A DNA stretch of 64,000 nt from Nitrospinales bacterium (GTDB taxonomy: Bacteria > Nitrospinota_A > UBA7883 > JACRGQ01), in the NCBI GenBank assembly GCA_023248535.1, contig JAHFEJ010000004.1:3012-67011 (forward strand). Reading direction: 5' to 3'. How positions within the stretch are numbered: position 1 is the stretch's first letter; every line of letters begins with the position of its first letter. The notes beneath the pieces were generated by a model. That model was not told the origin of the DNA. It was given only the letters and a program-made list of their open reading frames with translations, and made no database searches. This document shows positions 2,648-62,504 of this stretch, piece after piece. A program made the translations under genes and the position numbers.

Positions 2648-5600
2648 ATGGATGCGCCCGATTTTTCAGGTTTTGTAAACGAGTTCGTTGAGGAAGCCGA
2701 AGAGCATCTGCAAACCCTCAACGCCAGCCTCCTCCACATCGAACAAAGCGCCGCCAGCGGAGCGGCCAACAAGGAAAAGGTGGATTCCCTCTTCCGCGCG
2801 GCCCACACCGTCAAAGGCCTCGCGGGGATGATGGAGTTCGAGGGAATCGAGCGGCTGTGCCACCGGATGGAAGACATTTTCGGGGAAATCCGCCACGGCC
2901 AAATGCCGGTAACCGCCGAAATCATCGACGCGCTCTTCGCCGCGGCGGATACGCTGGCAAAACTGATCGCCGCCGTGCGTGAAAGCGGCACCGACAAGGG
3001 GGTGCCCACCGGCGCCCCGCTGGAACTCATGAACAAGGCGCTACTCGCCGCAAAAGCGGTTCCCGTTTCCCCCTCAAAAAAAACCAAGGGAAAGAAAAGG
3101 AAAAGGATCGATCCCGCCGATCTGGGCATCTCCCTGGACGCCGCCCTGTTGGATGAAAAAGACCTCGTCATGCTTGAAGACGCGGTGACGGCCGGACTAT
3201 GGATTTACGAGCTGGGCAAGGAATTCACCGGCGGAACGCCCCTCGATAAAATTCACCGCCTGCCGGTCTTCCGCGACATCGAACAGGCCGGCATGCTCAT
3301 CGCCACACTCCCTCCGGTCGAGCACATTCCCGCCGCCAAGGGAACCGTCAATTGCCGCTTCATCTTTAGTTCCGACCTCCCCTCCGGCAGTGTACGCGAC
3401 ATTTTTCTTGATCCGGTGACGGTGCTCAAGGAAGGATGGACCGCGAAGCCCCCTCCTTCCGCAGTTGCCGCGGAGCCGGAACCGGAAGCGCCGGAACAGC
3501 GGCCGCTTAACGAAATCCTGGCGCAGTTGGATGAAACGCTGATCCAGGAATTCGTGAAGTCCGCCTTGGAGCAGCTTGACCAGATCGATCTCGCCCTGCT
3601 GGAACTCGAACGGGATCCGGGGGATTCTTACATCGCCATGGAAATCCATAACGGCTTCCGCTCCTACAAGGGAAAAGCGGCCCTCTTCGGTTTTAATAAG
3701 ATCGCCCTGCTGGCGGGCAAACTTGACGGCATTTTCGGGTTGATCCACAACCAGCGGGTCATCGCCGGAACCGAACTTTTCGAAGCGGTTGCCATCAGCG
3801 CCGAAAAACTGCGGCGCCTGCTGGAAGAGCTCAAACTGCGCAAAGAAACCGGCATTTCGGTGAATGACGACCTGAAACGGCTGGACGCCCTGGTTGGAAA
3901 GGCAAAATGGATCCCGGAAGAATTGGGCGCGGTGCTGGCCCAATCGGCGCTGAGTCCCGATGTAATTGCGCAACTGAACGCCGCCGAAAAAGCGCTGATC
4001 GCGGAGGAGTACGAAAAGGGGCGCGCCATCTATCAGATCGTCATCCGCTTCGCCGAAGACGCCTTGAAATCGGGGTACGAACCGCTCTCCATCGTTCCGG
4101 TAATAGGGAAATGCGGCGACATCCTGGTAAGCATCCCCATCATCGACGGGGTGCCCGAAATCTTCCGCTACGAGGCCGACAAGTGGGGCATCGGCTTTCA
4201 CTTCCTTTTCGCCACAAATCTTTCGCCGGAACAGTTACACTCCCGTTTCACCATGCTCCCCCGGTTCATGGAAATTGACCTGCGCAAAGTATTGCATAAG
4301 GAGGCGTCTTCAAAACCTGTCACGGCCCGCCCGGCGGCGGCAGCCCCGGCGAAACAGGTTTCCGCCACGCCAACGCCAAAGTTTGGCGGAGAACGCACCC
4401 ACTTCCCTGAAGAGGCCGCCAGCCGCGGCTTGAAAGAGCCTTCCGCGGCCCGGCTTGAAGAACCCATCCGGCTTGAACGGCGGCAAACCGGGAACTCCCT
4501 TGACGGCTATTCCGCCGAAGATGCGGAAAAGAAACTCAAGGAGAAAGCCGTAAACACCATACGCGTCGATATCGGCCGGCTGGACAAGCTGCTGAACCTT
4601 ATCGGCGAGCTGGTGATAGACCGCACCCGGCTGGAACAATTAAGCGCTGAAGTGCGCAGACAACTGCCAACCAATCCGATCGGCGTTCAACTGGCCCATA
4701 CGAACCAGCTTTTCCAGCGCCACATAAACGACGTGCAGGACATGGTGATGTCGGTGCGGATGGTGCCGATCGGCAACGCCTTCAACAAATTCCCGCGCAT
4801 AGTGCGCGACATGGCGAAATCGCTGAAAAAAAACGTAAACCTGATCATCGACGGCGAAGAGACGGAGCTGGATAAAACCATCATCGAGGAGGTGGGCGAT
4901 CCGTTGATCCACCTGATACGCAACGCCCTCGACCACGGGATAGAGCCGCCGCATGAACGCCGCGCGGCAGGCAAGCCGGAAACCGGCCAGATAACGCTAA
5001 AGGCCTATCACGAGGGGGACACGATCATCATCGAGGTGTCTGACGATGGCCGGGGCATGGACCTTGAAAAAATACGGTCGCTTGCGGTGCAAAAAGGGCT
5101 GCTTGACCCGGATGCCGCCCAGATCAATGAAAAAGAGCTGCTCCAGTTCATTTTCGAGCCGGGATTCAGCACCACCGAGGAGCCTACGATGGTATCCGGG
5201 CGCGGCGTTGGAATGGATGTGGTAAAAAGGAACATCGTCAAACTCAAAGGGCTTATCGACATTTTCTCGGAACAGGGCAAAGGATGCGTCATCCGGCTGC
5301 GGCTGCCGCTGACACTCGCCATCGTCCCCACCCTCATTGTCGGGGTGCGGGAAGAGACCTTCGCCATTCCCCTTTCATCGGTGGCGGAATCGATCCGCAT
5401 AGCCGCGGGGGATATACGTATGGTGAACGGGCGCGAGATGATAACCCTGCGCGATACGGTTTTGCCGCTGGCCCGGCTGGACAAGCTGTTCATGCTGGAC
5501 CACAAGCCGTTGCGCAAAACGCCCCCTCAAGCGCAACAGGGGGGTGCGGCGGAAAAATCCTTTAAGGGCGCGGGCCGGGCGCGGCGTGACTCCGTATTCA

Positions 5601-10586: not shown

Positions 10587-13037
10587 TCAGCCAAGATAAC
10601 GGGTGACGCGGGGAATGAAATCTTCCGGCACGATCGGCTTGGCGATGAAGTCGTTCGCGCCCAATTCAAACACCTTGCGCCGGATATCGATCAGTTCGCC
10701 GCTGACCCCGGTGGAAGAGGAAATGGCGCTGTTAACGATCACGGGAAGCGTTTGAAGTAATGGATTGGCCCGAATCTCCCGGAGCAGCTCAAATCCATCC
10801 ATTTCAGGCATGCCAAGATCGGTGATCAACAACATGACCGAAGTGGTTTTCAGTATCTCCAGGGCCTCCACCCCATTAGAGGCTTCAATGACTTCCACAT
10901 CCTTTATTTCCAGGATGTGCTTTCTCATGATGGCGCGCTGCACCTCTTGATCGTCCGCCACCAGAACCACCGGCCGGATCGGCGGGAACCGCATGGAAAA
11001 AACGGCGCCCCGTCCCTCAACCGAGGCGACCGTTAAATCACCGCCATGGGCTTCCATGATTTCCTTGCAATAGGGAAGCCCCAGCCCCGTTCCCTTTTCA
11101 CCGCCGGTTCCCGTGGTGGTCGTTTTCACCTCCGGCCTGAAAATATCGGGCAGAAGCGATGCCGGTATGCCAACGCCGCCGTCCTTCACGGTGATGGTGT
11201 GGGGATCGGAGGCCCCCACGGTTATGCTGTCGCCTTCACGGCAGAATTTCACGGCGTTTGAAACAAGGTTATTCAATACTTCCAAGATCAGCGCGGTGTC
11301 GGCGAAAACCTTCATGCCGGAGGGGACTTCGTTGATGAGCCGAATCCCTTTTTTCTCGGCGGCCGGAGAGTAATGCCCGAACGAAGAGGCCGCAATATCG
11401 CGTACCGTCACGGGCTTTTTAATCACCAAAATCTTTCCCGACTGCAAACGGCTTAAATCGAGCAATTGATCGATCATCTCCAACAGGCCGCCAAGGTTTC
11501 CGCGCGCCCTCGACAACAAATTCGTCTCCGCCGCCGCGTTCACATTATAATGTTCCTTATTTTCCAGCATTCCCAGGAGCGCCATCACATTCCCCAGCGG
11601 TCCGCGCAGGTCATGCGAGACGAGCGAGATAAACTTGTTTTTGATTTTGGTGGCGTCCTCGGCATGTTCTTTTTCGATCCGCAGCGCGGTCGTCCTTTGC
11701 TCCACTTTTATTTCCAGTTGTTCCTTGGCCTCCAGCAGTATCTGGTGCACCCGCATTTCGTTTTCCAGCGCGCGCGCCTGCGCCTCCTCCTTTTCCCGCC
11801 GGATGGCCGCCGTCTTATCCTTTATGGCTTCCGAAATGGCTATCGACATGAGAATCGCCTCGGCGCAAACACCAACATCCATTGCGTGGCTGGTAATTGC
11901 CGAAAACGGCACCACACCCAGATGAACCAGGCCGTACACCACGATCCCCGCGATGCTGGATGCCCAGGCAAGAAGGAAGAACCGCGCGGCGCGCAAACCG
12001 TTTTTCAACGCCATAACGCCGGCCGCCAATAGCAGCGGCGGATACACCAACGCGGTACAAACAATGATCATGTGGAGTTGGGTATAATTGGGCCATGTCA
12101 GCGACAAAATGGTCATAATGCCACACGCCCAGAGATAGCCAACCATAAGACGGTCGGCGCGGGGAGCTGTTACCCGCGAGTTGAGAAAGACGCGCGCAAA
12201 AACAATCCCGCTTGACTCGACATACATCACGGCAAAGAGTATCGAATGTTTGGACCACCACAGCCAATCCGGCCAGAAATAGGCGTGGGCGAATCCATTG
12301 AAAACCAGGTTCTCAAAAATCCAGCTGGAAAGATAAATGACATAGACGATACTGCTTTTTTCCTTCAGGGAAATAAACATGAACAGGTTGTAGCAAAACA
12401 CGGCGAACAACACACCGAAATTCAGGCCATACAACAGCCATTCGTTCCTCTGCCGCCTGTGGAAATTATTTTCGTTCCATAAGGTAAAGGGTGTCATAAA
12501 CGTAGTTTCCGTCTTGACGCGCAGGTAAAGCGTTGTTTCACCCGGACCGGCACGGAACGGAAAGACCAAGCCCTGGCTGACAATCCCCGTTTCTTCTGGA
12601 ACCTCCATCAAGCCCGCCCTCCGCTCCGTAAACCCCCCTTCCGGCCGGGGAACATAAAGCAATACATGGTCGAGGTGGGTAAAATCCGTTCCGAGAATTG
12701 CTTCGAAGGGAGAAGCGGAGGGATTATCGACCGCCACCTTGAACCAGATGGCTGATGCGGTGAAACCAAAATAGAGGTTATCCATTCTGCTGGGTGCAAA
12801 ACGGGACTGAAACGCGGGCGATGAAACATCGGCGATGGTCAACGCCCCGCCGGGGTCTTCAAAAATATCGACGTGGCGCCCTAACCTATAAAGAGCGGTC
12901 TTGCCATCCAGCACAACCGGTGACGCTTCTGACGTTGTTGCCGCCAAAGACGGAAAAGACTGAAAAGAAAAAAAGAGTGCGGCGATCCCCATAATGAGAA
13001 AATAAGTCCCGCCCCTTTTCCGATTTGCCAACACCAC
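10587..13037 (-). CDS. Hybrid sensor histidine kinase with 7TMR-DISM periplasmic and 7TM domains, HisKA, HATPase_c and C-terminal receiver
   Basis: 816 aa: signal peptide, periplasmic domain, 7 TM helices, coiled coil, H-box (LVSHDLRGPL), HATPase (DGGVGIP...GTGLGL), receiver (VLVADDQ...DLGMPEMDG). Confidence 0.85.
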   Translation of the reverse strand: MVLANRKRGGTYFLIMGIAALFFSFQSFPSLAATTSEASPVVLDGKTALYRLGRHVDIFEDPGGALTIADVSSPAFQSRFAPSRMDNLYFGFTASAIWFKVAVDNPSASPFEAILGTDFTHLDHVLLYVPRPEGGFTERRAGLMEVPEETGIVSQGLVFPFRAGPGETTLYLRVKTETTFMTPFTLWNENNFHRRQRNEWLLYGLNFGVLFAVFCYNLFMFISLKEKSSIVYVIYLSSWIFENLVFNGFAHAYFWPDWLWWSKHSILFAVMYVESSGIVFARVFLNSRVTAPRADRLMVGYLWACGIMTILSLTWPNYTQLHMIIVCTALVYPPLLLAAGVMALKNGLRAARFFLLAWASSIAGIVVYGLVHLGVVPFSAITSHAMDVGVCAEAILMSIAISEAIKDKTAAIRREKEEAQARALENEMRVHQILLEAKEQLEIKVEQRTTALRIEKEHAEDATKIKNKFISLVSHDLRGPLGNVMALLGMLENKEHYNVNAAAETNLLSRARGNLGGLLEMIDQLLDLSRLQSGKILVIKKPVTVRDIAASSFGHYSPAAEKKGIRLINEVPSGMKVFADTALILEVLNNLVSNAVKFCREGDSITVGASDPHTITVKDGGVGIPASLLPDIFRPEVKTTTTGTGGEKGTGLGLPYCKEIMEAHGGDLTVASVEGRGAVFSMRFPPIRPVVLVADDQEVQRAIMRKHILEIKDVEVIEASNGVEALEILKTTSVMLLITDLGMPEMDGFELLREIRANPLLQTLPVIVNSAISSSTGVSGELIDIRRKVFELGANDFIAKPIVPEDFIPRVTRYLG

Positions 13038-17577: not shown

Positions 17578-17826
17578 TTAAAGGTCTTGCACCGCAGCCC
17601 GCTTTTTAGTCTTTTCCAGTTTTTTAATGCGGGCTTCAGCCTTGTGGGCATCGCTTTTCGCAAGTGGCCGGCTTTTTATCAACAGCTTTACCGGCAACCG
17701 CCCACGGGTGTATTTCGCCCCTTTTCCGCTGTTATGGGTGGCGAACCGCTTGCTTACATCAGTGGTCACGCCGCAGTAGCGGGTGCCGTCGGCGCATTTC
17801 AGCAGATACACATACCAACCGGCCAT
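17578..17826 (-). CDS. GIY-YIG nuclease family protein (small, standalone)
   Basis: 83 aa starting [34 protein letters not shown]...; GIY-YIG core (YVYLL...YCG); the longer ORF call extends into the upstream gene and is rejected. Confidence 0.85.
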
Positions 17827-18909: not shown

Positions 18910-20928
18910 CTAGGTTAAATCAAGCGTTGCTTTTCGCACGCGGGTGGTTTGGAATTCCAGCGCCTCGCGGGTTTTAGCCAGCGAATATTCGAATTCCCGT
19001 TCCAGCCGGGGATCGTTTTGCGAGGGAGGGGCGCTTACCCTCAGGTCAATCTTGTGCCCGGCCAGTTCCGCGCGCGAGAGCATGTCCGCCATTTCCATCA
19101 AAGCGGGGTTGATGCCCATACGGGTGTGGCGGAACTCGCCCCACGAATCGTGAAACACCATATCGACCCGCCGGATTTCCCCCGGCGATTCCGCCAAACC
19201 AAAGTTGGGGATCACGAACACCCGGACGACGGCTCGCTCGCCCAGATAATCGCCGCGGGATGGTTCATAGTGGTAGCCGGCAAAATAGGCATGCAGCTTG
19301 TTGAGCAGGTATTCCACATCCTCCTGGCTATAGGGAATCCCTTTTTCAGAGCGAAAGTAGAATTTTATGCCCGGTTTCCAGATGGCGTTGATGATCATCC
19401 ACACCATCATATCCACCAACGATTTCAGACGGTTGAGGGGCTGAACGGTGGAAAGTCCGGCGGTCACTTCCGAGGGGCTGCCGGTATAAAGCGCCCACCC
19501 CCGCTCTCCCCGAACCGATTTCTCAAGAAACAGCGAAAGTTTTTGCGCATCGGCCGGAATGGCCCGGTGAAAAAAAGCTATTTTGCCCGGCACCTGCTCA
19601 AAGTGGGTGAAAAGCTTGCGTCCCAACACCGTCATGTCATCCCGCGTTATATAGGTCAGCTTGTCGACATGGGTCTTCTGATAATCCGAAAGGCGGATGT
19701 AGGCATCAATGAAATAACGGTATACCCTGCCAAGGGAATTTAACCGGCGCTGGGGATCATGGGCAAACAGCTGTTGCAGGTCATCCGCTTCGTCCCCCTG
19801 CCACCCCCAGCGCTTCATAATGGCCGCCAATACCTGTTCCTTGGGCGAAAGCATTTCGGTGCGGGTCCGCAACAAGCGGTCAATGTCGTCCGGCTCAATG
19901 CCGGTTTTAAGGATGAACGCCCACTTCACCAGCGTCACCTCCTTCATCATCCCGCGTTGCACATAAAAGGCGTTGGAACGCTCGAACATCATGATATAGG
20001 GATCAATCTCCTCCAGCGGGCCGGCCGGGTCGAGAACCCGGCGTTTCACCTCCTCGCACAACAATCCCGCCAACGGATTGAACAGGTAGCTTTCCAGCAG
20101 TCCCATTTTCAACACCGACTTGAAAGGGGATCCAAGCGCCTTGTTGATCTGCCACAGAGCCGCGCCAAAGAACTCCTCTTCCTCGGCGTAAATGAGGTGC
20201 CCCAGGTCAATATATTCTTCCAGTCCTTCCATACCTTGCCGCCGCAAAGCGGTGTAAAGCCCCGCTGCTTCCAGTTCCGGGTAGTCGGGTGGAATAATCC
20301 ACCAGAGCGGTTTTCGCCCCGCCACCCAAATGGCGGTGCGGTAAAATTCGTCTTTGAACAACTTCCCCAACGCGGAGCCAACATTTTCCCGGTCCGTCTC
20401 CCCAAAAAGATTCAGGCGAAACTCGCTGATATCCTGCAAAAAGAAGTGCGCCTCCACCCGGTGCCGGGAATAGAGCCATTGCTCAATGGCGGCAAGCTTC
20501 CGTTTGAGTGAAAAAAGATCGGTCTGGGAAAACTCTTCTTTATCGATGAACAGAATGTAATCGAAATCGGATTTGTGCGTCTGCGCCACCGTTCCCAGGC
20601 TGCCGATGAGGGCGAGCGAAATTATTTTTGGCTCCTGGGCCGGATGGGCCGCCGCGCCTGGAGCGATCTCCGCCACCGCCTTCAGATGAAGTTCACGCGG
20701 AATGAAATTATGGATACCGGCGGGCGCGTCCAATACGGGCTTCAACCCCTCGATGCCGCTATAATTTGCGTGCAGCAACAGTGGCACCGCCCCAAAGACG
20801 GTGTTTTCGGCCGGGCTGAAGAGCGACACCGCGCCATAAATGCGGGCCACGTTGAACATGTCAAAGCGGTAGCGCTGCCGCCTTACCTGTTCGGGAATGA
20901 GCGGCGGCGCCGCCAAGCCGCCACTCAT
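18910..20928 (-). CDS. cyaA: Class I adenylate cyclase (CyaA-type catalytic region, shortened C-terminus)
   Basis: Alignable by eye to E. coli CyaA: nucleotidyltransferase motif ALIGSLGTVAQTHKSDFDYILFID (cf. [20 protein letters not shown]), DEFYRTAIWVAGRKPLWWIIP (cf. [21 protein letters not shown]), EEFFGAALWQINKALGSPFKSVLKMGLLESY, DPYIMMFER. Confidence 0.8.
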   Translation of the reverse strand: MSGGLAAPPLIPEQVRRQRYRFDMFNVARIYGAVSLFSPAENTVFGAVPLLLHANYSGIEGLKPVLDAPAGIHNFIPRELHLKAVAEIAPGAAAHPAQEPKIISLALIGSLGTVAQTHKSDFDYILFIDKEEFSQTDLFSLKRKLAAIEQWLYSRHRVEAHFFLQDISEFRLNLFGETDRENVGSALGKLFKDEFYRTAIWVAGRKPLWWIIPPDYPELEAAGLYTALRRQGMEGLEEYIDLGHLIYAEEEEFFGAALWQINKALGSPFKSVLKMGLLESYLFNPLAGLLCEEVKRRVLDPAGPLEEIDPYIMMFERSNAFYVQRGMMKEVTLVKWAFILKTGIEPDDIDRLLRTRTEMLSPKEQVLAAIMKRWGWQGDEADDLQQLFAHDPQRRLNSLGRVYRYFIDAYIRLSDYQKTHVDKLTYITRDDMTVLGRKLFTHFEQVPGKIAFFHRAIPADAQKLSLFLEKSVRGERGWALYTGSPSEVTAGLSTVQPLNRLKSLVDMMVWMIINAIWKPGIKFYFRSEKGIPYSQEDVEYLLNKLHAYFAGYHYEPSRGDYLGERAVVRVFVIPNFGLAESPGEIRRVDMVFHDSWGEFRHTRMGINPALMEMADMLSRAELAGHKIDLRVSAPPSQNDPRLEREFEYSLAKTREALEFQTTRVRKATLDLT

Positions 20929-23111: not shown

Positions 23112-23250
23112 CGTTGTTTAATTGTACCGCACTCGGGCAAATATGCAAAAAATATGGCGATTTGACCCCTAAGGGGCATTTAAGGGGGAGCTTTTGCACT
23201 CGAAAATGCTATTATAACCCCCAATGCCGAAGGGCACTTTTGGGAGAAAG

Positions 23251-24396
23251 ATGAAAAACCGCTTTCGTTTTCTTTTTGCCGGATTGGCGGCAATACTCTG
23301 GCTTCCGGCAACGACCCACGCCGCGGGCTACCCGCTTCAGCTTGACGGCGATACCTTCGCCACACTGAGCGTCCGGATACAGGCCGCCGCGGTTCTGGCG
23401 CAGGATCAGGCCGGCGCCGCCAATGGCGACGCCTCGCAGGGGGGTACTCATTATGATTTCTTCGCGCGGCGCATTCAGTTACTCGCCGCCGGACAGGTGA
23501 CCCCCGCCCTCTCGTTCATGATCATGATGGAGCATGCCCGCTACGGCGAAAACTACTCCCGTGGCACCGGCATCCAGACAGCCGACGCGTGGGTGCAATG
23601 GAACATGTCCGAAGCGTTCCACCTGATGACCGGAGCCTACCTTCCGCCATTCTCGCGCAACCAGCTTACCTCCGCGATGTACTTCATCGGGCCGGACCGC
23701 CCGATCTTGGAGAGCATGATGCTGGAATCCCCCGGCATGTACGAAAAGCGGGATCGTGGCGCCGTCCTCTGGGGCAACTTCAGCGGGCTGCAATACCGCG
23801 TTGCCGTTGGCAAAGGGGCAAAGAGCAGGGTTTTGGGCGACGAAACGCTCCGCACTACGTGGCGCGTGCACTATGCATTCCTGGATCCCGAGCCGGTTTA
23901 TTACTACAAGGAAAGCTACCTGGGAAAATCGCGCATCTTCACCGCCGGTTATTCCGTGGACAAACAGGATAAAGTCTCGCTGGATCCCGGCGGCAATCCC
24001 GCCCCTTACAGCGCGTGGACCTCCGACCTGCTCATGGAGGGGGGTGACGGCGGCACCATTTACACCGTACTCTACGCGTATTACAAATACGACTGGGGGA
24101 ACCCCGACCGCACCGGCACGGACGGCTTTTATCTGCAGGGCACCGGATGGACGCTGACCACCGCCTATCTGTCGGCAGGGATGCAGCCATACCTCCGTTA
24201 CACCGATTGGGTCGCCGCCAGCCTGGCCCCCAGCGCCAAGCAGAAGCGGTGGGCCATCGGGACGAATTACTACCTGAAGGGGCACGAATCAAAGTTCACG
24301 TTCGAATACGAGTCCATCAGCTTCGATCTCGAAGGCCCCACATACGATATGAAGAACCACGGCGTCTTCACCCTCCAGTTTCAAACCGCGTTTTAG
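23251..24396 (+). CDS. Outer-membrane beta-barrel protein (porin-like)
   Basis: Signal peptide MKNRFRFLFAGLAAILWLPATTHAAG; alternating amphipathic beta-strand pattern; C-terminal ...TLQFQTAF with terminal Phe typical of OMPs. Confidence 0.6.
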   Translation: MKNRFRFLFAGLAAILWLPATTHAAGYPLQLDGDTFATLSVRIQAAAVLAQDQAGAANGDASQGGTHYDFFARRIQLLAAGQVTPALSFMIMMEHARYGENYSRGTGIQTADAWVQWNMSEAFHLMTGAYLPPFSRNQLTSAMYFIGPDRPILESMMLESPGMYEKRDRGAVLWGNFSGLQYRVAVGKGAKSRVLGDETLRTTWRVHYAFLDPEPVYYYKESYLGKSRIFTAGYSVDKQDKVSLDPGGNPAPYSAWTSDLLMEGGDGGTIYTVLYAYYKYDWGNPDRTGTDGFYLQGTGWTLTTAYLSAGMQPYLRYTDWVAASLAPSAKQKRWAIGTNYYLKGHESKFTFEYESISFDLEGPTYDMKNHGVFTLQFQTAF

Positions 24397-24405
24397 CCTC
24401 TCCAT

Positions 24406-24606
24406 GTCATGCCGGGCTTGACCCGGCACCCAGAAAAATTATCAATGCTTCCCTCAATCGGCCCCTTGGGCCGAGGTACATGCTGAGAGCATGTACCCGC
24501 CGGGCTTCCGGGTGAGTACACAATTCATTGTGTACGCTGGCGCGCCAGCGCCAAGAGAGGTCGGCCCGTACGGGCCGATGTACCCAATAAATTGTGTACC
24601 CACCCA
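24406..24606. mobile_element. MITE-like element, family A (left hairpin TIR + REP-palindrome core; right TIR missing)
   Basis: GTCATGCCGGGCTTGACCCGGCACCCAGAAAAATTATCAATGCTTCC matches the TIRs of the copies at 45822, 53352 and 62347; followed by palindromes GTACATGCTGAGAGCATGTAC, GTACACAATTCATTGTGTAC, TGGCGCGCCAGCGCCA, GGCCCGTACGGGCC, GTACCCAATAAATTGTGTACC. Confidence 0.5.
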
Positions 24607-45670: not shown

Positions 45671-45821
45671 CCGGTGGGTGCAGGTTCTCAACATATACAT
45701 CGGCCCGGCGGGCTTGGAGAGTTGCCGCTGGCGCGGCAATGTCACACAGGAATGTGAGACCTGCTTCCCATGGTGGGACACGCATTCTTGCGTGTCATCG
45801 GCCCGGCGGGCCGATTGCGAT
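45671..45821. repeat. REP-like palindrome cluster
   Basis: Successive GC-rich palindromes GGCCCGGCGGGC, GCCGCTGGCGCGGCAA, GACACGCATTCTTGCGTGTC, GGCCCGGCGGGCC sharing motifs with the RAYT-flanking REPs. Confidence 0.5.
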
Positions 45822-45994
45822 GTCATCCCGCACTTGATGCGGGATCCAGAAACATTATCAAAGCTTCCCCCATCGGCCCGCCGGGCCGACGTTCCCTTGG
45901 CGCGGTGCGCCAATGTACCCAATAAATTATGTACCTACCGGGAGGGGGAAAGTTTGGACAATATTTCTGGGTGCCGGGTCAAGCCCGGCATGAC
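45822..45994. mobile_element. MITE-like element, family A, complete copy (two ~45-bp hairpin TIRs flanking a REP-palindrome core)
   Basis: Left TIR GTCATCCCGCACTTGATGCGGGATCCAGAAACATTATCAAAGCTTCC; right TIR (reverse complement) GTCATGCCGGGCTTGACCCGGCACCCAGAAATATTGTCCAAACTTTCC; core GGCCCGCCGGGCC / TTGGCGCGGTGCGCCAA / GTACCCAATAAATTATGTACC. Confidence 0.6.
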
Positions 45995-46042
45995 AGAGAA
46001 GGAATTGGCGCCGCATTGCCAACTGCCTCGATACCCGTTATA

Positions 46043-46339
46043 ATGGGAGCCGTGATAAAGTCGTTTGCCGGCAAAATGACCCGGAAGCTTTTCGAGGAAG
46101 GAAAGGCCGAAGGTCATTTACGGGCAATCGAGGCGGCGGCGAAAAGAAAGCTCGCCATGCTTCACTTTGCGCGGCGGCTTGCCGACTTGCGCGTGCCGCC
46201 GGGAAACAGGCTGGAAGCCCTTAAAGGCGGCAGAAAAGGACAATTCAGCATCAGGATAAACGACCAATATCGAATCTGCTTTCGTTTTGATGAAGGAGAA
46301 GGCAATGCTTACGATGTTGAAATCACCGATTATCATTAA
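46043..46339 (+). CDS. higB: HigB-like toxin (plasmid-maintenance killer protein, RelE/ParE superfamily)
   Basis: 98 aa MGAVIKSFAGKMTRKLFEEGKAEG...NRLEALKGGRKGQFSIRINDQYRICFRFDEGEGNAYDVEITDYH matches the HigB/killer family (FKxxxxxKxF ... RLEALKG...QFSIRINDQYRICFRF...DVEI.DYH). Confidence 0.85.
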   Translation: MGAVIKSFAGKMTRKLFEEGKAEGHLRAIEAAAKRKLAMLHFARRLADLRVPPGNRLEALKGGRKGQFSIRINDQYRICFRFDEGEGNAYDVEITDYH

Positions 46340-46351
46340 GGAAATGAAGCC

Positions 46352-46651
46352 ATGAGCGGTATTGGATACGCCATTGAACATCCGGGGGCGGTGCTGTGGG
46401 AGGAGTACCTTCAGCCGATGGGGATAACCCAAAGCCGCTTCGCGCGGGAGATCGCCATCAGCTTTACGCGAGCCAACGAACTGATAAACGGGAAACGGGG
46501 CTTTACGCCCGATACCGCCCTGCGGGTGGCGAAATATCTGGGCACGTCGCCGGAATTCTGGATGAACTGGCAAGCGGCCTACGATCTCCAGCGCGCCCGC
46601 AAAGAGCACGCCGGCGACTATCGCAAAATAAAAACCGTCACCGCCGCGTAA
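46352..46651 (+). CDS. higA: HigA-family antitoxin (XRE-type HTH)
   Basis: 99 aa; IEHPGAVLWEEYLQPMGITQSRFAREIAISFTRANELINGKRGFTPDTALRVAKYLGTSPEFWMNWQAAYDL is the canonical HigA/VapI HTH antidote pattern; 12 nt after higB. Confidence 0.85.
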   Translation: MSGIGYAIEHPGAVLWEEYLQPMGITQSRFAREIAISFTRANELINGKRGFTPDTALRVAKYLGTSPEFWMNWQAAYDLQRARKEHAGDYRKIKTVTAA

Positions 46652-46770
46652 CCCTCCATCGGCCCGCCGGGCCGATTGTCTTGGTAGGTGCGACATTCCT
46701 GTCGCACATTGGCGCAACGCGCCAACCGTGTCGGCCCAATGGGCCGATGTACCCAATGAATTGGGTACCC
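46652..46770. repeat. REP-like palindrome cluster abutting the higA stop
   Basis: GGCCCGCCGGGCC, GTGCGACATTCCTGTCGCAC, TTGGCGCAACGCGCCAA, GGCCCAATGGGCC, GTACCCAATGAATTGGGTAC: the same palindrome types as in the RAYT-flanking arrays. Confidence 0.55.
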
Positions 46771-46780
46771 ACCGGGAAAG

Positions 46781-46810
46781 GCAGGGGCAGGTTTGAAACC
46801 TGCCCGTACA
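46781..46810. repeat. Palindrome GGGCAGGTTTGAAACCTGCCC (copy 1; second copy at 47939-47967)
   Basis: Near-identical 25-29-bp hairpin plus flank (…CCCGTACA(A)GCATCCG) present twice, bracketing the low-GC cassette. Confidence 0.45.
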
Positions 46811-47938: not shown

Positions 47939-47967
47939 GTACGGGCAGGTTTGAAACCTGCCCGTAC
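47939..47967. repeat. Palindrome GTACGGGCAGGTTTGAAACCTGCCCGTAC (copy 2)
   Basis: 12-bp perfect stem with TTGAA loop 36 nt after the lipoprotein stop; same element as at 46781-46810. Confidence 0.5.
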
Positions 47968-48006
47968 AAGCATCCGCCCCGCCGGGAGAAAGGAAAAAGA
48001 CAAGAG

Positions 48007-48050
48007 AGCTTTGAAAATATTTCTGGATCCCGGGTCAAGCCCGGGATGAC
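48007..48050. mobile_element. Solo right-end TIR of MITE family A, 7 nt downstream of the rel stop
   Basis: AGCTTTGAAAATATTTCTGGATCCCGGGTCAAGCCCGGGATGAC: its reverse complement GTCATCCCGGGCTTGACCCGGGATCCAGAAATATTTTCAAAGCT matches the family A TIR consensus. Confidence 0.5.
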
Positions 48051-48057
48051 AAAAAGA

Positions 48058-50235
48058 TCAGCGTTTTTCGGCGCGGCGGGCATCCATGATACGTTCGACG
48101 CTGCGGATGCCATCGAGGCCGCGCACCGTTTCCAATATCCGTTGCAGGTGATTGAGGTCTTCTATCTCGACCGTGAGATCCAGATCCCCCTCTATCGCGC
48201 TGGTGGCGGTGACGGTGGCGGATGCGATATTCGCTTCGCACCCGGCGATGGCGGCGGAGACCCGCGCCAAAATGCCGGGACGGTTGAGGCTCTTAATGAG
48301 GATGCGCACCGGGCGGAGCTGCTTTTTCGCGGCGGTCTCCCACCGGGCTTCGAGCAGCCGTTCGGGGTCGGCCTCCAGGGATTTAAGGGAGGGGCAACTT
48401 TTGGCGTGGATCACCAAGCCGTGCCCGGCCGAGATGTACCCCAAGATCGGGTCGCCCGGCACGGGGTTGCAGCAGCCGGCGAAGCGGATCAGCATGTCGT
48501 GGATATCGCCCACGCGCACCCCCAGGTTTTCGGTCACGCTGGCGATGTAGTTCTTGCGGCGGTTTTCGACCTCGCGCCATTTTTCGGCCGGGAGCAGCTT
48601 GTGCAGCACCGTGTAGGCCGATAGCGACGAGATGCCGATACGGTCGAGCATCACCTCGGCGTTTTTGAAACCGAGGGCCACGGCGGCGGCCTCCATCGTT
48701 TCTTTCGTCCAAAACGCCTTCAGGTCCAGCCCGTGGCGGCGCAGCTCGTTCTCCACGATCTCGTTCCCCAGCCGCAGCGATTCCACCTTCTGCGCGTTGC
48801 GCAGATACCCCTTTATCTTGGCGCGGCCGTGGGAGGTGACGGCGATCTTGAGCCAATCGCGCACCGGGTGCTGCTCGTTCGAGGTGAGCACCTCCACCAC
48901 GTCGCCGTTGCGCAGCTGGTAGTCGGGCGGCACCGGCTTGCCGTTCACCAGCGCGCCGAGGAAGTGGTTCCCCAACTGGGTGTGGATGCCGTAGGCGAAA
49001 TCGAGCGGGGTGGCCCCGGCGGGGAGCGCTTTCACCTCCTGCTTCGGGGTGAAGACGTAGACCTCGTTCGGAAAGAGGTCCATCTTGAGCGTGTCGATGA
49101 ACTCCTCGGAATTGTCGACGCTGAGGCCCAGGTCCAGCAGCCGCTTCACCCAGATGAAATTCTCGTCGTCCTTGGTGGGGGGGCGCTTCCCCTCTTTATA
49201 GCGGAAGTGCGCCGCCACGCCGTCTTCGCTGTTGCGGTGCATCTGGCTGGAGCGTATCTGGAATTCCACCCGCCGCCCGGTGTGCGTGAGCACGGTGGTG
49301 TGTATGCTCTGGTACATGTTCTCTTTCGGCAGCGCGATATAGTCCTTGAACTTGCCGGGGATCGGCTTCCACTTCGTGTGGACAAGCCCCAGCACCTTGT
49401 AGCAGTCGAGCAGGCTGTTGGTGATGATCCGCACGCCGATGAGATCGTATATCTGGTCGAAATCGAGGTTCTGTTCGGTCATCTTGCGGTAGATGCCGTA
49501 AAAATGCTTGAAGCGCCACGACACCTGCCCCATGATCTTTTCCATCAGCATCAGGTCGCGCGTTTGGGCGCAGAGGCTGGTGATGAATTTATCCAGCTCC
49601 TCCTGCCGCTCTTTCATCAGCCCCTCGATCCGCTTGTACTCGAACGGCATGAGGTACTTGAAGGCTATGTTCTCCAGCTCCACCTTGATCCAGTGCAGGC
49701 CCAGGCGGTTGGCCAGCGGGGCGTAGATATCCATCGTCTCCTGCGAGATGAATTTCTGTTTCTGCGGGGGGAGGAAATCGAGCGTCCGCATGTTATGGAG
49801 GCGGTCGGCCAGCTTGATGAGCACGACGCGGAGGTCGTTGCTCATGGCCAGGATCATCTTGCGGACGTTTTCGGCCTGCGATTCCTCTTTGCTGGCGAAG
49901 GTGAGGCGGCTGAGCTTGGTAAGCCCCTCCACCAGCAGCAGCACCTCCCCGCCGAAGATCGAGCGTATCTGGGCGGGATCGGCTTCGGTATCCTCCAGCG
50001 TGTCGTGCATCAGGGCGGCGGCGATGGCGGCGGGATCCATCTTCATTTTGGTGAGGATGAACGCCACCTGCATCGGGTGGCTCATATACGGCTCGCCGGA
50101 AAGGCGCACCTGCCCCTTGTGCGCCGCCGAGGCGAACGCGTAGGCCCCCAGTATCTTGTCCACCTCGGCGTCCGGCTGATATTCGCGGACGGCTTCGATG
50201 ATCTCCTCCAGGTGTATCGCCCGCAGCGCCTGCAT
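48058..50235 (-). CDS. rel: Bifunctional (p)ppGpp synthetase/hydrolase, RelA/SpoT family
   Basis: 725 aa; HD hydrolase domain (HPMQVAFILTKMKMDPAAIAAALMHDTLEDT), RelA/SpoT synthetase domain, TGS and C-terminal ACT. Confidence 0.95.
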   Translation of the reverse strand: MQALRAIHLEEIIEAVREYQPDAEVDKILGAYAFASAAHKGQVRLSGEPYMSHPMQVAFILTKMKMDPAAIAAALMHDTLEDTEADPAQIRSIFGGEVLLLVEGLTKLSRLTFASKEESQAENVRKMILAMSNDLRVVLIKLADRLHNMRTLDFLPPQKQKFISQETMDIYAPLANRLGLHWIKVELENIAFKYLMPFEYKRIEGLMKERQEELDKFITSLCAQTRDLMLMEKIMGQVSWRFKHFYGIYRKMTEQNLDFDQIYDLIGVRIITNSLLDCYKVLGLVHTKWKPIPGKFKDYIALPKENMYQSIHTTVLTHTGRRVEFQIRSSQMHRNSEDGVAAHFRYKEGKRPPTKDDENFIWVKRLLDLGLSVDNSEEFIDTLKMDLFPNEVYVFTPKQEVKALPAGATPLDFAYGIHTQLGNHFLGALVNGKPVPPDYQLRNGDVVEVLTSNEQHPVRDWLKIAVTSHGRAKIKGYLRNAQKVESLRLGNEIVENELRRHGLDLKAFWTKETMEAAAVALGFKNAEVMLDRIGISSLSAYTVLHKLLPAEKWREVENRRKNYIASVTENLGVRVGDIHDMLIRFAGCCNPVPGDPILGYISAGHGLVIHAKSCPSLKSLEADPERLLEARWETAAKKQLRPVRILIKSLNRPGILARVSAAIAGCEANIASATVTATSAIEGDLDLTVEIEDLNHLQRILETVRGLDGIRSVERIMDARRAEKR

Positions 50236-50671: not shown

Positions 50672-53338
<2,667 letters not shown>

Positions 53339-53351
53339 CCGCGCCTTTCAT

Positions 53352-53498
53352 GTCATGCCGGTCTTGAACCGGCACCCAGAAATACTTTCAAAACTTCTTG
53401 GCGCTACGCGCCAATGTACATGCTCTCAGCATGTACCCACCCCGGGGAAAAGAAAGTTTTGAAAATATGTCTGGATCCCGCATCAAGTGCGGGATGAC
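53352..53498. mobile_element. MITE-like element, family A, complete copy filling the gap between the convergent secA and topoisomerase B-subunit stops
   Basis: Left TIR GTCATGCCGGTCTTGAACCGGCACCCAGAAATACTTTCAAAACTTC; core TTGGCGCTACGCGCCAA + GTACATGCTCTCAGCATGTAC; right TIR ...AAAGTTTTGAAAATATGTCTGGATCCCGCATCAAGTGCGGGATGAC. Confidence 0.65.
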
Positions 53499-53502
53499 AG
53501 CT

Positions 53503-55392
53503 CTAGATGTCGGCTTCGAAGCCGGCGGCGTTTTCGGTGATGAACTTGAAGCGGGCCTGCACGTCGCGCCCCATCAGGTCGCTGAAGGCCTTGTCGGTCT
53601 CTTCCGCATCGACCAGCATCACCTGCAGGAGGGTGCGCTTTGATTTATCCATGGTGGTCTCTTTCAGCACCGTCACCGGCATTTCCCCCAGCCCTTTGAA
53701 GCGCGAGACCTCCAGCTTCCGGTTTTTGTGCTTCGCCATCACCTGTTCTTTTTCGGCGTCGTCGGCGGCGTAGATCACCTCGTCCTTGCCCATCGTGATG
53801 CGGTAGAGCGGCGGCTGGCTGAGGTAGATGTGGCCGTGATCGATGAGCGGCCTCATGTTGCGGTAAAAGAACGTGAGCAGCAGGGCGCTGATGTGCGCGC
53901 CGTCCACGTCGGCGTCGGTCATGATGATGATCTTGCTGTAGCGCAGCTTGTCCAGGTCGAACGCCGCGCCGATGCCGGTGCCGATGCTGAGCATCAGCGC
54001 CTGTATTTCGGCGTTGGCCTGCAGCTTGGCGTCGGCCGCGCTTTCGACGTTCAGTATCTTTCCGCGCAGCGGGAGGATGGCCTGCGTTTTGCGGTCGCGG
54101 GCCTGCTTGCTGCTGCCGCCGGCGCTGTCGCCTTCCACGATGAACAGTTCGCACTCATCGGGGCTGGCGCTGGAGCAATCGGCCAGCTTGCCCGGCAGCG
54201 TGAGGCGGTGCGACACCAGCCCCTTGCGGTGCACCTCTTCCCGCGCGGCGCGGCTGGCCATGCGGGCGCGGGCGGCCAGCTCCACGCGGGCGATGACGGC
54301 GTCGGCCACGGTGGGATTTTCCAGCAGGTACTTTTCAAACGCGGGACGGACGGCGCTTTCCACCTGGCCGGCCACTTCCACGTTGTTCAGCTTGTCTTTC
54401 GTCTGCCCCTGGAACTGCGGCTGGCCCACCAGCACGCTCAGGATGCAGGTAAGCCCTTCGCGCACGTCGTCCGCCGTGACCGGCGGCGCCTTCCCTTTCG
54501 GCAGCTTGCGCTCCATCGCGTCGCGCACGGTCTTCACCAGCGCGCTCCGCAGTCCGGCCTCGTGCGTGCCGCCGTCGCCGGTGGCGATGCTGTTGCAGTA
54601 GCTTTCCATGCGGCTTTCGGTTTTCTCGGTCCACTGGAAGGCCGCCTCCACCTTGATGGGGGAGGTTACGCTTACGAAGAACGGGGCGGGCATCACCCCT
54701 TTTTGCGCGCCGAGCACCTTGTTGATGTAGTCCAGAATGCCGTTCTCGTAGAAATAGCTCTTGGTTTCCTTGGTACGGCGGTCGGTGACGCTGATCTTCA
54801 GCCCCTTGTTGATGAAGGCCTTGGATTCGGCCCGGTCGCAGATGGTCTTGAAATTGAATTTCAGCTTGCCGAATATCTCGTGGTCGGTGACAAAGTGCTG
54901 GGACGTTCCGTGCGCGCGCGTCGCCTCGCCTTTCCGCAGCTTGGTTTTCGCGACGCCGCGGCTGAACTCCTGATGCCAGGTGTAGCCATCGCGCTTCACC
55001 TCCACCTCCAGCTTTTCGGAGAGCGCGTTCACCACGCTAATGCCGACGCCGTGCAGGCCGCCAGAGGAGGAATAGTTCTTGTTGTGGAACTTGCCCCCGG
55101 CGTGCAGCGTGCACATGATGATCTCAAGCGCCGGTTTTTTGAATTTGGGATGCAAGTCGACCGGTATGCCGCGGCCGTCGTCGGAGACCTTCACCGCGTT
55201 GTCGGCGGTGATCTCTATCTCGATGTGGGTGGCGTAGCCGTTGATCGCCTCGTCCACCGAGTTGTCGACCGCCTCCCACACCAGATGGTGCAGGCCGGTG
55301 CTGTCGGTGCCGCCGATGTACATGCCGGGGCGCACCCGGACCGGCTCCAGCCCTTCCAGTACCGTTATGTCTTCGGCGGTATACTTACCCAC
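53503..55392 (-). CDS. Type IIA DNA topoisomerase subunit B (GyrB/ParE family)
   Basis: 629 aa, GTG start; GHKL ATPase blocks ([31 protein letters not shown]), TOPRIM ([12 protein letters not shown]); assignment gyrB vs parE not resolvable by eye. Confidence 0.9.
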
Positions 55393-57655: not shown

Positions 57656-57753
57656 TGGAGAAAAGAAATAACAGATTTCGCCTTAAAATGGAAGCGGTAT
57701 AAATAGATATATGCGAATTAATGTGTTTTTATTGGTTGAATTCGTCTCCTTGC

Positions 57754-57991
57754 TTGGTGGGTACCCAATTCTTTATTGGTGGGTACCCAATTCATTGGGT
57801 ACATCATGCCACAAGGCAGGACTTTCCCCTTGGCGCTGGCGCGCCAACGTACACATTAAAATGTGTACCTACCCGGAAAAGCCCCTCTCTTGGTCTCGGT
57901 GGGACGGACACTCCTGTCCGTCATCGGCTCGCAGGGCCGACTCTCTATTGGCGCTGGCGCGCCAACGTACACATTAAAATGTGTACCCACC
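57754..57991. repeat. REP array (left flank of RAYT): two repeat units of GGTGGGTACCCAATTC(T)ATTGGGTAC / GGCCGACTCT / TTGGCGCTGGCGCGCCAA / GTACACATTAAAATGTGTACC
   Basis: Ends 4 nt before the RAYT stop; contains the same four palindrome types (P1-P4) as the right-flank array, plus GACGGACACTCCTGTCCGTC. Confidence 0.6.
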
Positions 57992-57995
57992 GGCA

Positions 57996-58487
57996 TCAAG
58001 GCAACATATTTTCATTTACAATCAGCCACGGGTAATCTTGCGGCCTTTCCGCAAGACCGGCACGAACCGCATTCCCCCGTATATACTCATATTTATCCAG
58101 CCATTCATCTTCATTCCGCACTATCCTGTCGTAGGACTCCTTCTGCCAGCAAGAACCGGTACGCTTGAGCAATCTGTTGACCGGGTGCGATGTTTTGCCT
58201 TTTATGGTTTTTAGAATGCCGGTCAGCGAATAAAATAACCCTGCCGCTTTCTCCAGCGGTCTTATCAAAAGATGTATGTGATCGGGCATAATAACGCCTA
58301 TTGAAACATCGTACTTGCTCCGCGCACCTTCAAGTACCGCCAATCGAACAATGTCACGCCCCGCCTCCGGCAACAAAAATCCTTTTGTGCGGAAGGTGAC
58401 AAAGTACCACATGCCCCCTTGCTGCCAATGAGGGAGCTTCCGGTGGGTGATCGTTACATCGGTTGCGGTAATGTTCCGCTTCGGCAT
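57996..58487 (-). mobile_element. REP-associated tyrosine transposase (RAYT, IS200/IS605 Y1 HUH transposase family)
   Basis: MPKRNITATDVTITHRKLPHWQQGGMWYFVTFRTKGF...IMPDHIHLLIRP (HxH/HUH motif) ...YEYIRGNAV (catalytic Tyr region); flanked on both sides by REP arrays; the ORF call extends with a TTG start into the REP, so the ATG at 58487 is preferred. Confidence 0.8.
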
Positions 58488-58512
58488 AAGCCGATGATAA
58501 CATTTCTTCCCT

Positions 58513-58950
58513 GCTCGGTGGGTATCCAATTTTTTATTAGGTGGGTACCCAATTCATTGGGTATATCGGCCCAACGGGCCGACTCTCTCTTGGCGCGTTG
58601 CGCCAATGTACACAATAAATTGTGTACCTACCCGGATGCTCGGTGGGTACCCATTTTAATGGGTACTTCGGCCCAACGGGCCGACTCTCTCTTGGCGCGT
58701 TGCGCCAATGTACACAATAAATTGTGTACCTACCCGGATGCTCGGTGGGTACCTATTTTAATGGGTACTTCGGCCCAACGGGCCGACTCTCTCTTGGCGC
58801 TTTGCGCCAATGTACACAATAAATTGTGTACCTACCCGGATGCTCGGTGGGTACCCATTTTAATGGGTACATTGGCGCAAAGCGCCAAGAAGGTGTCATA
58901 CCTGACGGCATGATGTACACAATAAATTGTGTACCTACCGGGGAAGCGGG
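58513..58950. repeat. Tandem REP array (right flank of RAYT): four ~102-bp units, each a string of four palindromes
   Basis: Unit GCTCGGTGGGTACCCATTTTAATGGGTACTTCGGCCCAACGGGCCGACTCTCTCTTGGCGCGTTGCGCCAATGTACACAATAAATTGTGTACCTACCCGGAT repeats at ~58513 (with a 23-bp insertion), 58638, 58740 and 58842 (last copy degenerate). Confidence 0.7.
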
Positions 58951-58985
58951 AATAAAAAAAGGGGCTTGGGTTGAACCCAAGCCCC
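58951..58985 (-). terminator. Rho-independent terminator of the porin gene
   Basis: Minus strand: GGGGCTTGGGTT-loop-AACCCAAGCCCC followed by TTTTTTTATT, 25 nt after the porin stop. Confidence 0.7.
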
Positions 58986-62346: not shown

Positions 62347-62490
62347 TGTCATCCCGGCCTTGAGCCGGGATCCAGAAATATTTTCAAAGCTTTCTCCATC
62401 GGCCCGGTGGGCCGACACTCTTCAGCGGCAGGCGTGCCAATTTAAGAAAGCTTTGATAATGTGTCTGGATTCCCGCCTACGCGGGAATGA
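62347..62490. mobile_element. MITE-like element, family A, complete copy between the convergent folC and NHL-protein stops
   Basis: Left TIR GTCATCCCGGCCTTGAGCCGGGATCCAGAAATATTTTCAAAGCTTTC; right TIR GAAAGCTTTGATAATGTGTCTGGATTCCCGCCTACGCGGGAATGAC; short core with GGCCCGGTGGGCC. Confidence 0.65.
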
Positions 62491-62504
62491 CAGGGATGGG
62501 GAGA

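Follow-up and report, generated by a model that had tools for sequence, protein, structure and literature searches.

Terminal modules and their gene context

The repeat at 53351–53499 occupies the gap between two convergent genes, with the secA stop codon at 53338 and the parE stop codon at 53503. It belongs to a set of repeats in the window (the whole 64-kb stretch of DNA that was analysed), for which an earlier note on the same DNA had named five sites sharing a terminal element. All five are present within 1 nt of where that note had placed them; the last of the reported elements covers 62348–62491, or 62347–62492 when the invariant outer T/A is counted. The repeated unit is an oriented module of ~46 nt, consisting of a T, a GTC tag, an 8-bp hairpin, CCA, GAAA and TATTTTCAAAGCTT. 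Eight such modules (m1–m8) were found in the 64-kb window, arranged as three head-to-head pairs and two solos. The degenerate terminal pattern GTCATSCCGNNNTTGANNCGGSAYCCAGAAA gives 7 matches in the window, with 0.00 expected from 100 shuffles, and the eighth end (62491, minus strand), whose loop is 4 nt long, was picked up by a hairpin scan and not by this pattern. The subterminal 21-mer CCAGAAATATTTTCAAAGCTT, with up to 3 mismatches allowed, occurs eight times against 0 expected, and only at the eight modules. With eight modules found and none expected, the claimed repeat family with inverted hairpin ends is well founded.

The solo module m1 (24405–24450, + strand) forms the hairpin TGCCGGG/CTTGA/CCCGGCA and carries the TGTC tag, the CCA tail and an AT-rich subterminal stretch. 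The stop codon of a porin-like ORF (23224–24396) lies 8 nt upstream of the module's start, and palindromes of the types REP-A, REP-C and REP-B lie behind it, to about 24603. The first head-to-head dimer (45821–45995) is composed of m2 (45821–45866, + strand; stem CCCGCA/TGCGGG) and m3 (45950–45995, − strand; stem GCCGGG/CCCGGC). The other solo module, m4 (48006–48051, − strand; stem CCCGGG/CCCGGG), starts 6 nt beyond the stop codon of spoT/relA (ORF 48058–50235, minus strand). Dimer 2, the originally reported site at 53351–53499, contains m5 (53351–53396, + strand) and m6 (53454–53499, − strand). Dimer 3 (62347–62492), which lies between the stop codons of folC (62315) and an NHL-like gene (62505), is a heterodimer of m7 (62347–62392, + strand), with the 5-nt loop CTTGA, and m8 (62448–62492, − strand; TGTCATTCCCGCGTAGGCGGGAATCCAG), with the 4-nt loop GTAG. 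A Logan contig (L118), matched by its exact SpoT protein, ends inside m4; the exact-protein look-up with SecA returned no match.

Through an alignment of the eight modules, it was found that the TGTC tag is invariant (8/8), as are the GTC ahead of the stem and the C behind it, and that a CCA tail follows the stem on its 3′ side in every module (columns 28–30). The 8-bp stem is ATCCCGGG/CCCGGGAT; its first pair is A-T in five modules and A·C in the other three, and its second pair is T-A in all eight. The loop is CTTGA in 7/8 modules and GTAG in the remaining one. Five or six stem variants coexist among the modules of the window.

Six modules read in the same sense as a neighbouring gene and begin 3–31 nt beyond its stop codon, and the siting close to gene 3′ ends described in the earlier note is correct. 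Its more specific claim, that complete copies sit between convergent stops, holds for the secA|parE and folC|NHL-like gaps (two of the three copies) but not for 45821–45995, which lies upstream of a higB/higA-like pair. From our own reading of the translations, the latter is a putative toxin–antitoxin pair (46053–46652, + strand; about 95 and 99 aa) that immediately follows dimer 1. Ahead of the pair, at 46016–46044, is a promoter-like site that resembles a sigma-70 promoter (TTGCCA-17-TATAAT, 11/12) more closely than any other in the region, and a REP array (46654–46800) lies behind the pair.

A scan of the whole window against Rfam gave nothing above gathering thresholds, and a permissive scan of 53300–53550 gave chance-level matches only (E = 0.47 and 0.76). 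ARAGORN calls an 88-nt tRNA-Pro(tgg) at 20016–20103 (− strand), inside a 672-aa ORF (18910–20928, minus strand); this call is probably false, as Rfam has no tRNA there at its gathering score.

REP palindromes in the dimer spacers

Three kinds of palindrome recur in the window: REP-A (CGGCCC-N3-GGGCCG), REP-B (TGGCGC-N3/4-GCGCCA) and REP-C (a GT(A/G)G tag followed by GTAC...GTAC), the last with 17 tagged copies in arrays on both sides of a gene for a REP-associated tyrosine transposase (RAYT). The spacer of dimer 1 contains REP-A (45874–45888), REP-B (45898–45912) and a GTAG-tagged REP-C (45915–45938), that of dimer 2 contains REP-B (53399–53413) and a GTGG-tagged REP-C (53416–53440), and that of heterodimer 3 contains REP-A (62400–62414) plus another hairpin. 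The three spacers thus differ in content (A, B and C; B and C; A and another hairpin).

The RAYT gene (57996–58529, − strand) matches NCBIfam NF047646 with E = 2e-22 and a score of 79.6 bits (cut-off 80), and has a weak match to Y1_Tnp (E = 3e-4). Arrays of REP-A, REP-B and REP-C flank it at 57751–58010 and 58512–58960, and these flanks contain no TGTC modules. The same palindromes occur in the RAYT-flanking arrays and in the dimer cores, which confirms that the cores are built of RAYT-type REPs, and this RAYT is likely to be the source of the spacer palindromes. At 58530–58960, abutting the RAYT gene, the array is a BIME-like tandem repeat with a 102-nt period and 3–4 units, each made of REP-C, REP-A, REP-B and REP-C. 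A further palindrome, GTACGGGCAGGTTTGAAACCTGCCCGTAC, is present at 46782–46810 and 47939–47967, and is distinct both from REP-A, REP-B and REP-C and from the TGTC modules.

As single-stranded DNA, dimer 2 has a predicted fold (−45.2 kcal/mol, z = −11.4) with a hairpin at each end, a stem in the centre and the REP hairpins. The predicted folds of the composites have z-scores of −11.4 and −8.7, and their central stem arises from pairing between the subterminal stretches, which are complementary.

Compensatory changes in the module stem

The stems were said to be preserved by compensatory changes, and this is borne out by the eight-module alignment, in which the covariation score is 0.411 as compared with 0.098 in shuffles, and none of 500 shuffles reaches it. 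Among the eight window modules, 92% of stem cells are paired (76% in shuffles), with double-sided changes at three of the eight stem pairs, involving 10 cells. The pair 9-25 occurs as C-G, G-C and U-A, the pair 13-21 as G-C and C-G, and the pair 14-20 as G-C, A-U, C-G and U-A. When the alignment register is slid, the pairing is only 17–46%.

A change of the same kind is seen at one orthologous position. The loop-closing pair of the left module in the secA|parE gap is T-A in the window and G-C in a related genome (L124, described below). Both sides of the pair may have changed in place, or the module may have been converted by another copy.

Comparison of orthologous gaps

The best named relatives of SecA and of FolC are from Nitrospinae/Nitrospinota metagenome-assembled genomes (MAGs), and orthologous loci were compared in four relatives (L119, L122, L124 and L127). 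In the window, the secA|parE gap holds both modules. L124 (GCA_040960095.1), in which FolC is 83% identical and the gene order is the same, has an intact left module in this gap, while the right one is replaced by other hairpins; the gap also holds degenerate REP-A and REP-B, plus REP-C. L119 (GCA_027341145.1, SecA 93%) has neither the left module nor REP-B; REP-C persists there as a remnant, and the right module has a decayed stem. L122 (SecA 76%) has no module after secA, and its downstream gene order differs, with no parE. At the 3′ end of spoT, m4 is absent from L119 and L122, and the folC|NHL gap of L124 and L127 contains other palindromes and no module. In L124, the same convergent gaps (3235–3320, 11290–11330 and 11490–11520) also hold a different hairpin family (CCTCCCTTTGAAAAAGGGAGG, CCCCCTTTTGCAAAGGGGG). 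These comparisons suggest that convergent-gene gaps act as sinks for several palindrome families.

Since the modules are gained, lost and decay singly, the composite is best described as a mosaic, like BIMEs and the Neisseria intergenic mosaics, and not as a transposing unit. The earlier note had proposed a MITE-like family of 145–175 bp, and mobility as one unit does not survive the comparison, given that the cores differ and that relatives carry single modules. In its classical form this explanation would have the elements be deletion derivatives of an insertion sequence (IS), moved as 145–175-bp units by a DDE transposase for which the 45-bp ends serve as terminal inverted repeats. It is easy to see its appeal, for each copy is bounded by long inverted repeats that begin TGT...ACA, and the copies are short, intergenic and, by prediction, strongly folded. 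We nevertheless consider it very unlikely, because the cores differ among the three copies, single ends stand at the same gap in relatives, solo ends occur in the window itself, and the window has no transposase bearing module ends. Nor was a target-site duplication seen in the flanks of the window elements, and in 53 compact dimers from other phyla none rose above shuffled flanks. Moreover, the same 31-nt end is found across many phyla; to our knowledge, the terminal inverted repeat of no IS family has such a spread. A possible AAAAAGA repeat around m4 falls in an A-rich stretch.

Distribution of the module across phyla

Species genomes, one per species, were scanned with the pattern GTCATNNNNNNCTTGANNNNNNAYCCAGAAA, in which both stem arms are N, and at least 117 loci were found, as compared with a rough expectation of fewer than 10 chance matches in the species collection for this stem-free scan. 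The matches listed include Patescibacteria, Chloroflexota, Nitrospirota, Nitrospinota, Desulfobacterota, Zixibacteria, Cloacimonadota, Coxiellaceae, SAR324 and others. Copies outside the window were found in contigs of relatives (L124 and L121) and in many phyla.

Among the matches listed, 97 of 121 have fully Watson-Crick stems, whereas 9.9 do so with shuffled arms, and 49 stem combinations are represented; the pair 6-22 occurs as four pair types, and each of the pairs 9-19 to 11-17 as three or four. The bases at −1 and −2 before GTCAT are pyrimidines in 113/120 and 104/120 of the matches listed, respectively. The non-Watson-Crick cells of the matches listed are more often G·T (17) than A·C (6; p = 0.035), an excess that points to selection on the tagged strand. 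An inverted partner lies downstream of 60 of 109 modules among the matches listed, and only 8 are arranged back to back; the total length of the head-to-head dimers in this set peaks at 60–100 nt, with a median of 78 nt. The compact dimers (loci L001–L117) are mostly heterodimers, in which a CTTGA-loop module is combined with a partner whose stem is ATTCC... and whose loop is of the GAAAG or GCGAAAGC type. One contig labelled Bathyarchaeia (L035) and a MAG of Moraniibacteriota (L026) have nearly identical dimers; the contig may be mis-binned, or a recent transfer may have taken place.

ORFs of the type of Ssn, a GIY-YIG nuclease family, are present at 4 of the 117 loci listed. At two of them, L047 (Armatimonadota) and L073 (Desulfobacterales), the Ssn-type gene lies within a head-to-head pair of CTTGA-loop modules. 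This layout reproduces the 'NTS-ssnA-NTS' arrangement of Chenal et al. 2025 (PMC11893778).

A scan of metagenomes with a lineage-specific 44-nt pattern gave one match, L121. At 1–80 of this contig, the lineage-specific module is joined to a REP-A-like palindrome, GGCCTTTTAGGCC, at the distance also found in m1, m2 and m7. In our own reading of the sequence, the ORF after this module encodes a putative C-terminus of an IS66-type transposase. The L121 and L123 contigs come from the same JGI sample (Ga0315281).

Identity of the module

Di Nocera, De Gregorio and Rocco catalogued in 2013 the 'CGTC-tagged REPs', in the families CGTC-1 and CGTC-2 (PMC3733652). These are defined by an unpaired 5′ tag, CGTC, with TGTC and CCTC as common variants, by a stem of 8–9 bp with complementary A-T residues at positions one and two, by a loop of 4 nt (family 1, comprising dRS3 and Rickettsia RPE-6) or 5 nt, and by a short unpaired 3′ tail with the consensus CCA (PMC3733652). 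They occur mainly as head-to-head dimers with spacers of 20–100 bp, heterodimers being common; those at convergent genes (conv-REPs) lie within 20 bp of both ORF ends, and in some species CGTC-REPs coexist with GTAG REPs (PMC3733652). More recently, Chenal et al. 2025 defined the Neisseria Transformation Sequence (NTS), CGTCATTCCCGCGMAVGCGGGAATCYRG, which contains the dRS3 repeat, together with a degenerate Ssn-related motif, SRM (PMC11893778).

A comparison of m8 with the Neisseria NTS gives 26 matching positions out of 28. The published SRM pattern is matched exactly by four of the eight modules, as against 0.5 expected, and the other four fail it because of shifted or compensated stem bases. 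We therefore take each of the supposed terminal inverted repeats to be a copy of the CGTC/TGTC-tagged REP hairpin, alias dRS3, NTS or SRM, and the window elements to be gene-less head-to-head dimers of it, a reading to which we assign a probability of roughly 80%. The earlier note had not recognised its 'TIR' as this described and very widespread element. A REP-A copy at 45794 was considered as a further SRM and rejected; its GTCAT start is a chance product of the flank, since other REP-A copies do not start with GTCAT.

Possible roles in the transcript

The earlier note had also suggested that the elements could act as bidirectional terminators. This was not upheld: the stems are followed by CCAGAAA instead of a T-run, and there are no modules among the 44 terminator-like sites of the window. 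A terminator-like hairpin at 53324–53345 (GGCGCGG...CCGCGCC, then TTTCAT) extends across the secA stop codon, immediately ahead of m5, and it would be a better candidate for the secA terminator than m5, if any structure terminates secA.

It might still be asked whether the modules act mainly as RNA, that is, as 3′-UTR hairpins that block exonucleases or convergent read-through, with the covariation reflecting selection on RNA structure. A position 3–31 nt past stop codons would suit a function at the RNA level, the excess of G·T over A·C fits selection on one strand, and many REPs have been argued to be transcribed, lying within 20 bp of ORF 3′ ends (PMC3733652). We regard this as improbable for the main function. 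Besides having no T-run, the stems are not called as terminators by a consensus scan; the invariant unpaired tag, C and tail are explained by recognition by a protein and not by a generic hairpin; in other phyla, the orientation of solo modules is only weakly biased with respect to neighbouring gene ends (15 vs 10 among the matches listed); and SsnA does not act on RNA (PMC11893778). A role at the RNA level could coexist with one at the DNA level.

Ssn nucleases and the proposed mechanism

SsnA is a 94-aa GIY-YIG protein, which binds its motif only as single-stranded DNA and only on the strand that bears the tag, makes its cut a few nucleotides 5′ of the tag, and is inactive on RNA (PMC11893778). 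Binding depends critically on the C that follows the palindrome and cleavage on the 3 nt that precede it, and activity is abolished when the palindrome is altered with the hairpin kept (PMC11893778). In Neisseria, nicking by Ssn trims incoming transforming DNA (PMC11893778). The ssn genes themselves are found in the spacers of head-to-head motif dimers, as in the layout NTS-ssnA-NTS.

The bases that are critical in the SsnA experiments (GTC and C) are invariant in all eight window modules. With an Ssn profile built from four ORFs, no Ssn-type (cd10448-like) gene was found in the 64-kb window or in ~90 kb of its relatives, and it is for this reason by analogy that we infer Ssn recognition to operate in this Nitrospinota genome. 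On one strand, the motif consists of YY, the GTC tag, an 8-bp stem starting with A-T, a loop of 4–5 nt, C and the CCA tail. An Ssn-family GIY-YIG nuclease would bind the hairpin of the single-stranded module and nick a few nucleotides 5′ of the tag. If so, the stem would show compensatory changes because it must pair on the tagged strand, and the tag, the C and the tail would be invariant because their sequence must be kept. The RAYT at 57996–58529 represents a second, independent hairpin system, whose GTAG-type REPs fill the dimer spacers. By analogy with REP/RAYT, Ssn-dependent copying is our leading hypothesis for how the modules spread.

How do several stem variants coexist in one genome? 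It is not obvious that one enzyme could serve all five or six stems, since a change of the palindrome abolishes SsnA activity (PMC11893778). Tolerance of the enzyme, several paralogues or hairpin-templated conversion are possible explanations.

The only GIY-YIG gene in the window (17578–17826, − strand) encodes an 82-aa protein of the UPF0213/YhbQ type. It was examined as the cognate nuclease and rejected, being of the UPF0213 type (PDB 1zg2, E = 7e-17) with no module adjoining it; its match to the Ssn profile has an E-value of only 5e-5. That an enzyme encoded in the window, either this protein or the RAYT, acts on the TGTC modules is to our mind extremely doubtful. Both genes are indeed present, RAYT-type REPs are physically nested within the dimers, and other transposases were proposed in 2013 as possible movers of CGTC REPs (PMC3733652). 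However, the RAYT gene is flanked only by REP-A/B/C arrays and never by TGTC modules, the modules do not have the GTAG tag, and the GIY-YIG gene is of another type, with a weak Ssn-profile match and no module beside it.

Returning to the Ssn family as the more plausible partner, we can offer a broader picture only tentatively and at odds well short of even. In this picture, head-to-head SRM dimers would be the non-autonomous partners of ssn-carrying dimers, forming a mobile class that is driven by a GIY-YIG single-strand DNA nuclease and runs parallel to REPIN/RAYT. It would still be active in this lineage, where single modules of 46–74 nt are gained or lost between genomes whose proteins are 83–93% identical. 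The Ssn/SRM and RAYT/GTAG-REP systems would colonise the same convergent gaps, with RAYT REPs placed inside SRM dimers.

The practical gain from this analysis is correct annotation, and it also tells annotators and assemblers what breaks contigs, an example being L118, which ends in m4. The turnover of single modules, the apparent compensatory change in place and the nested RAYT REPs could inform how CGTC/SRM elements spread and what role Ssn has outside Neisseria; none of these three observations overturns current understanding.

Comparison with known systems

The window modules have every sequence feature of the CGTC-tagged REPs, namely the tag, the stem, the loop and the tail (PMC3733652). 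They likewise form head-to-head dimers, including a heterodimer, have spacers with complementary ends, lie near the 3′ ends of convergent or co-directional ORFs, and are accompanied by GTAG REPs. In copy number, there are 8 in 64 kb as against 0 expected, and the same lineage-specific module is present in L124 and L121. They differ in their host, since Nitrospinota is absent from the five phyla of the 2013 listing (PMC3733652), in their longer spacers (about 50–85 nt between the 46-nt modules), which hold GTAG-type REPs, and in a lineage-specific variant with A·C at the first stem position (GTCATG...CAC).

With the Neisseria NTS and the SRM, the window modules share the invariant GTC before the stem and C after it. 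In contrast, they show several stem variants in one genome and have no ssn gene in the window.

REPIN/RAYT, BIMEs and the Neisseria intergenic mosaic elements resemble the window elements in being inverted hairpin pairs that are non-autonomous and clustered into mosaics. The REPIN/RAYT type is tied to a single-copy enzyme acting on single-stranded DNA, and the dimer cores and the arrays around 57996–58529 are of this kind. Unlike GTAG REPs, the terminal modules have the TGTC tag in place of GTAG and are absent from the flanks of the RAYT gene; they belong to the CGTC superfamily. The module family was thus already catalogued in 2013, and the link to its nuclease followed in 2025. What is new here is the host phylum, the A·C variant, the extended module of 46 nt, the RAYT-type REPs nested within the dimer spacers and the evidence for module-by-module turnover between relatives.
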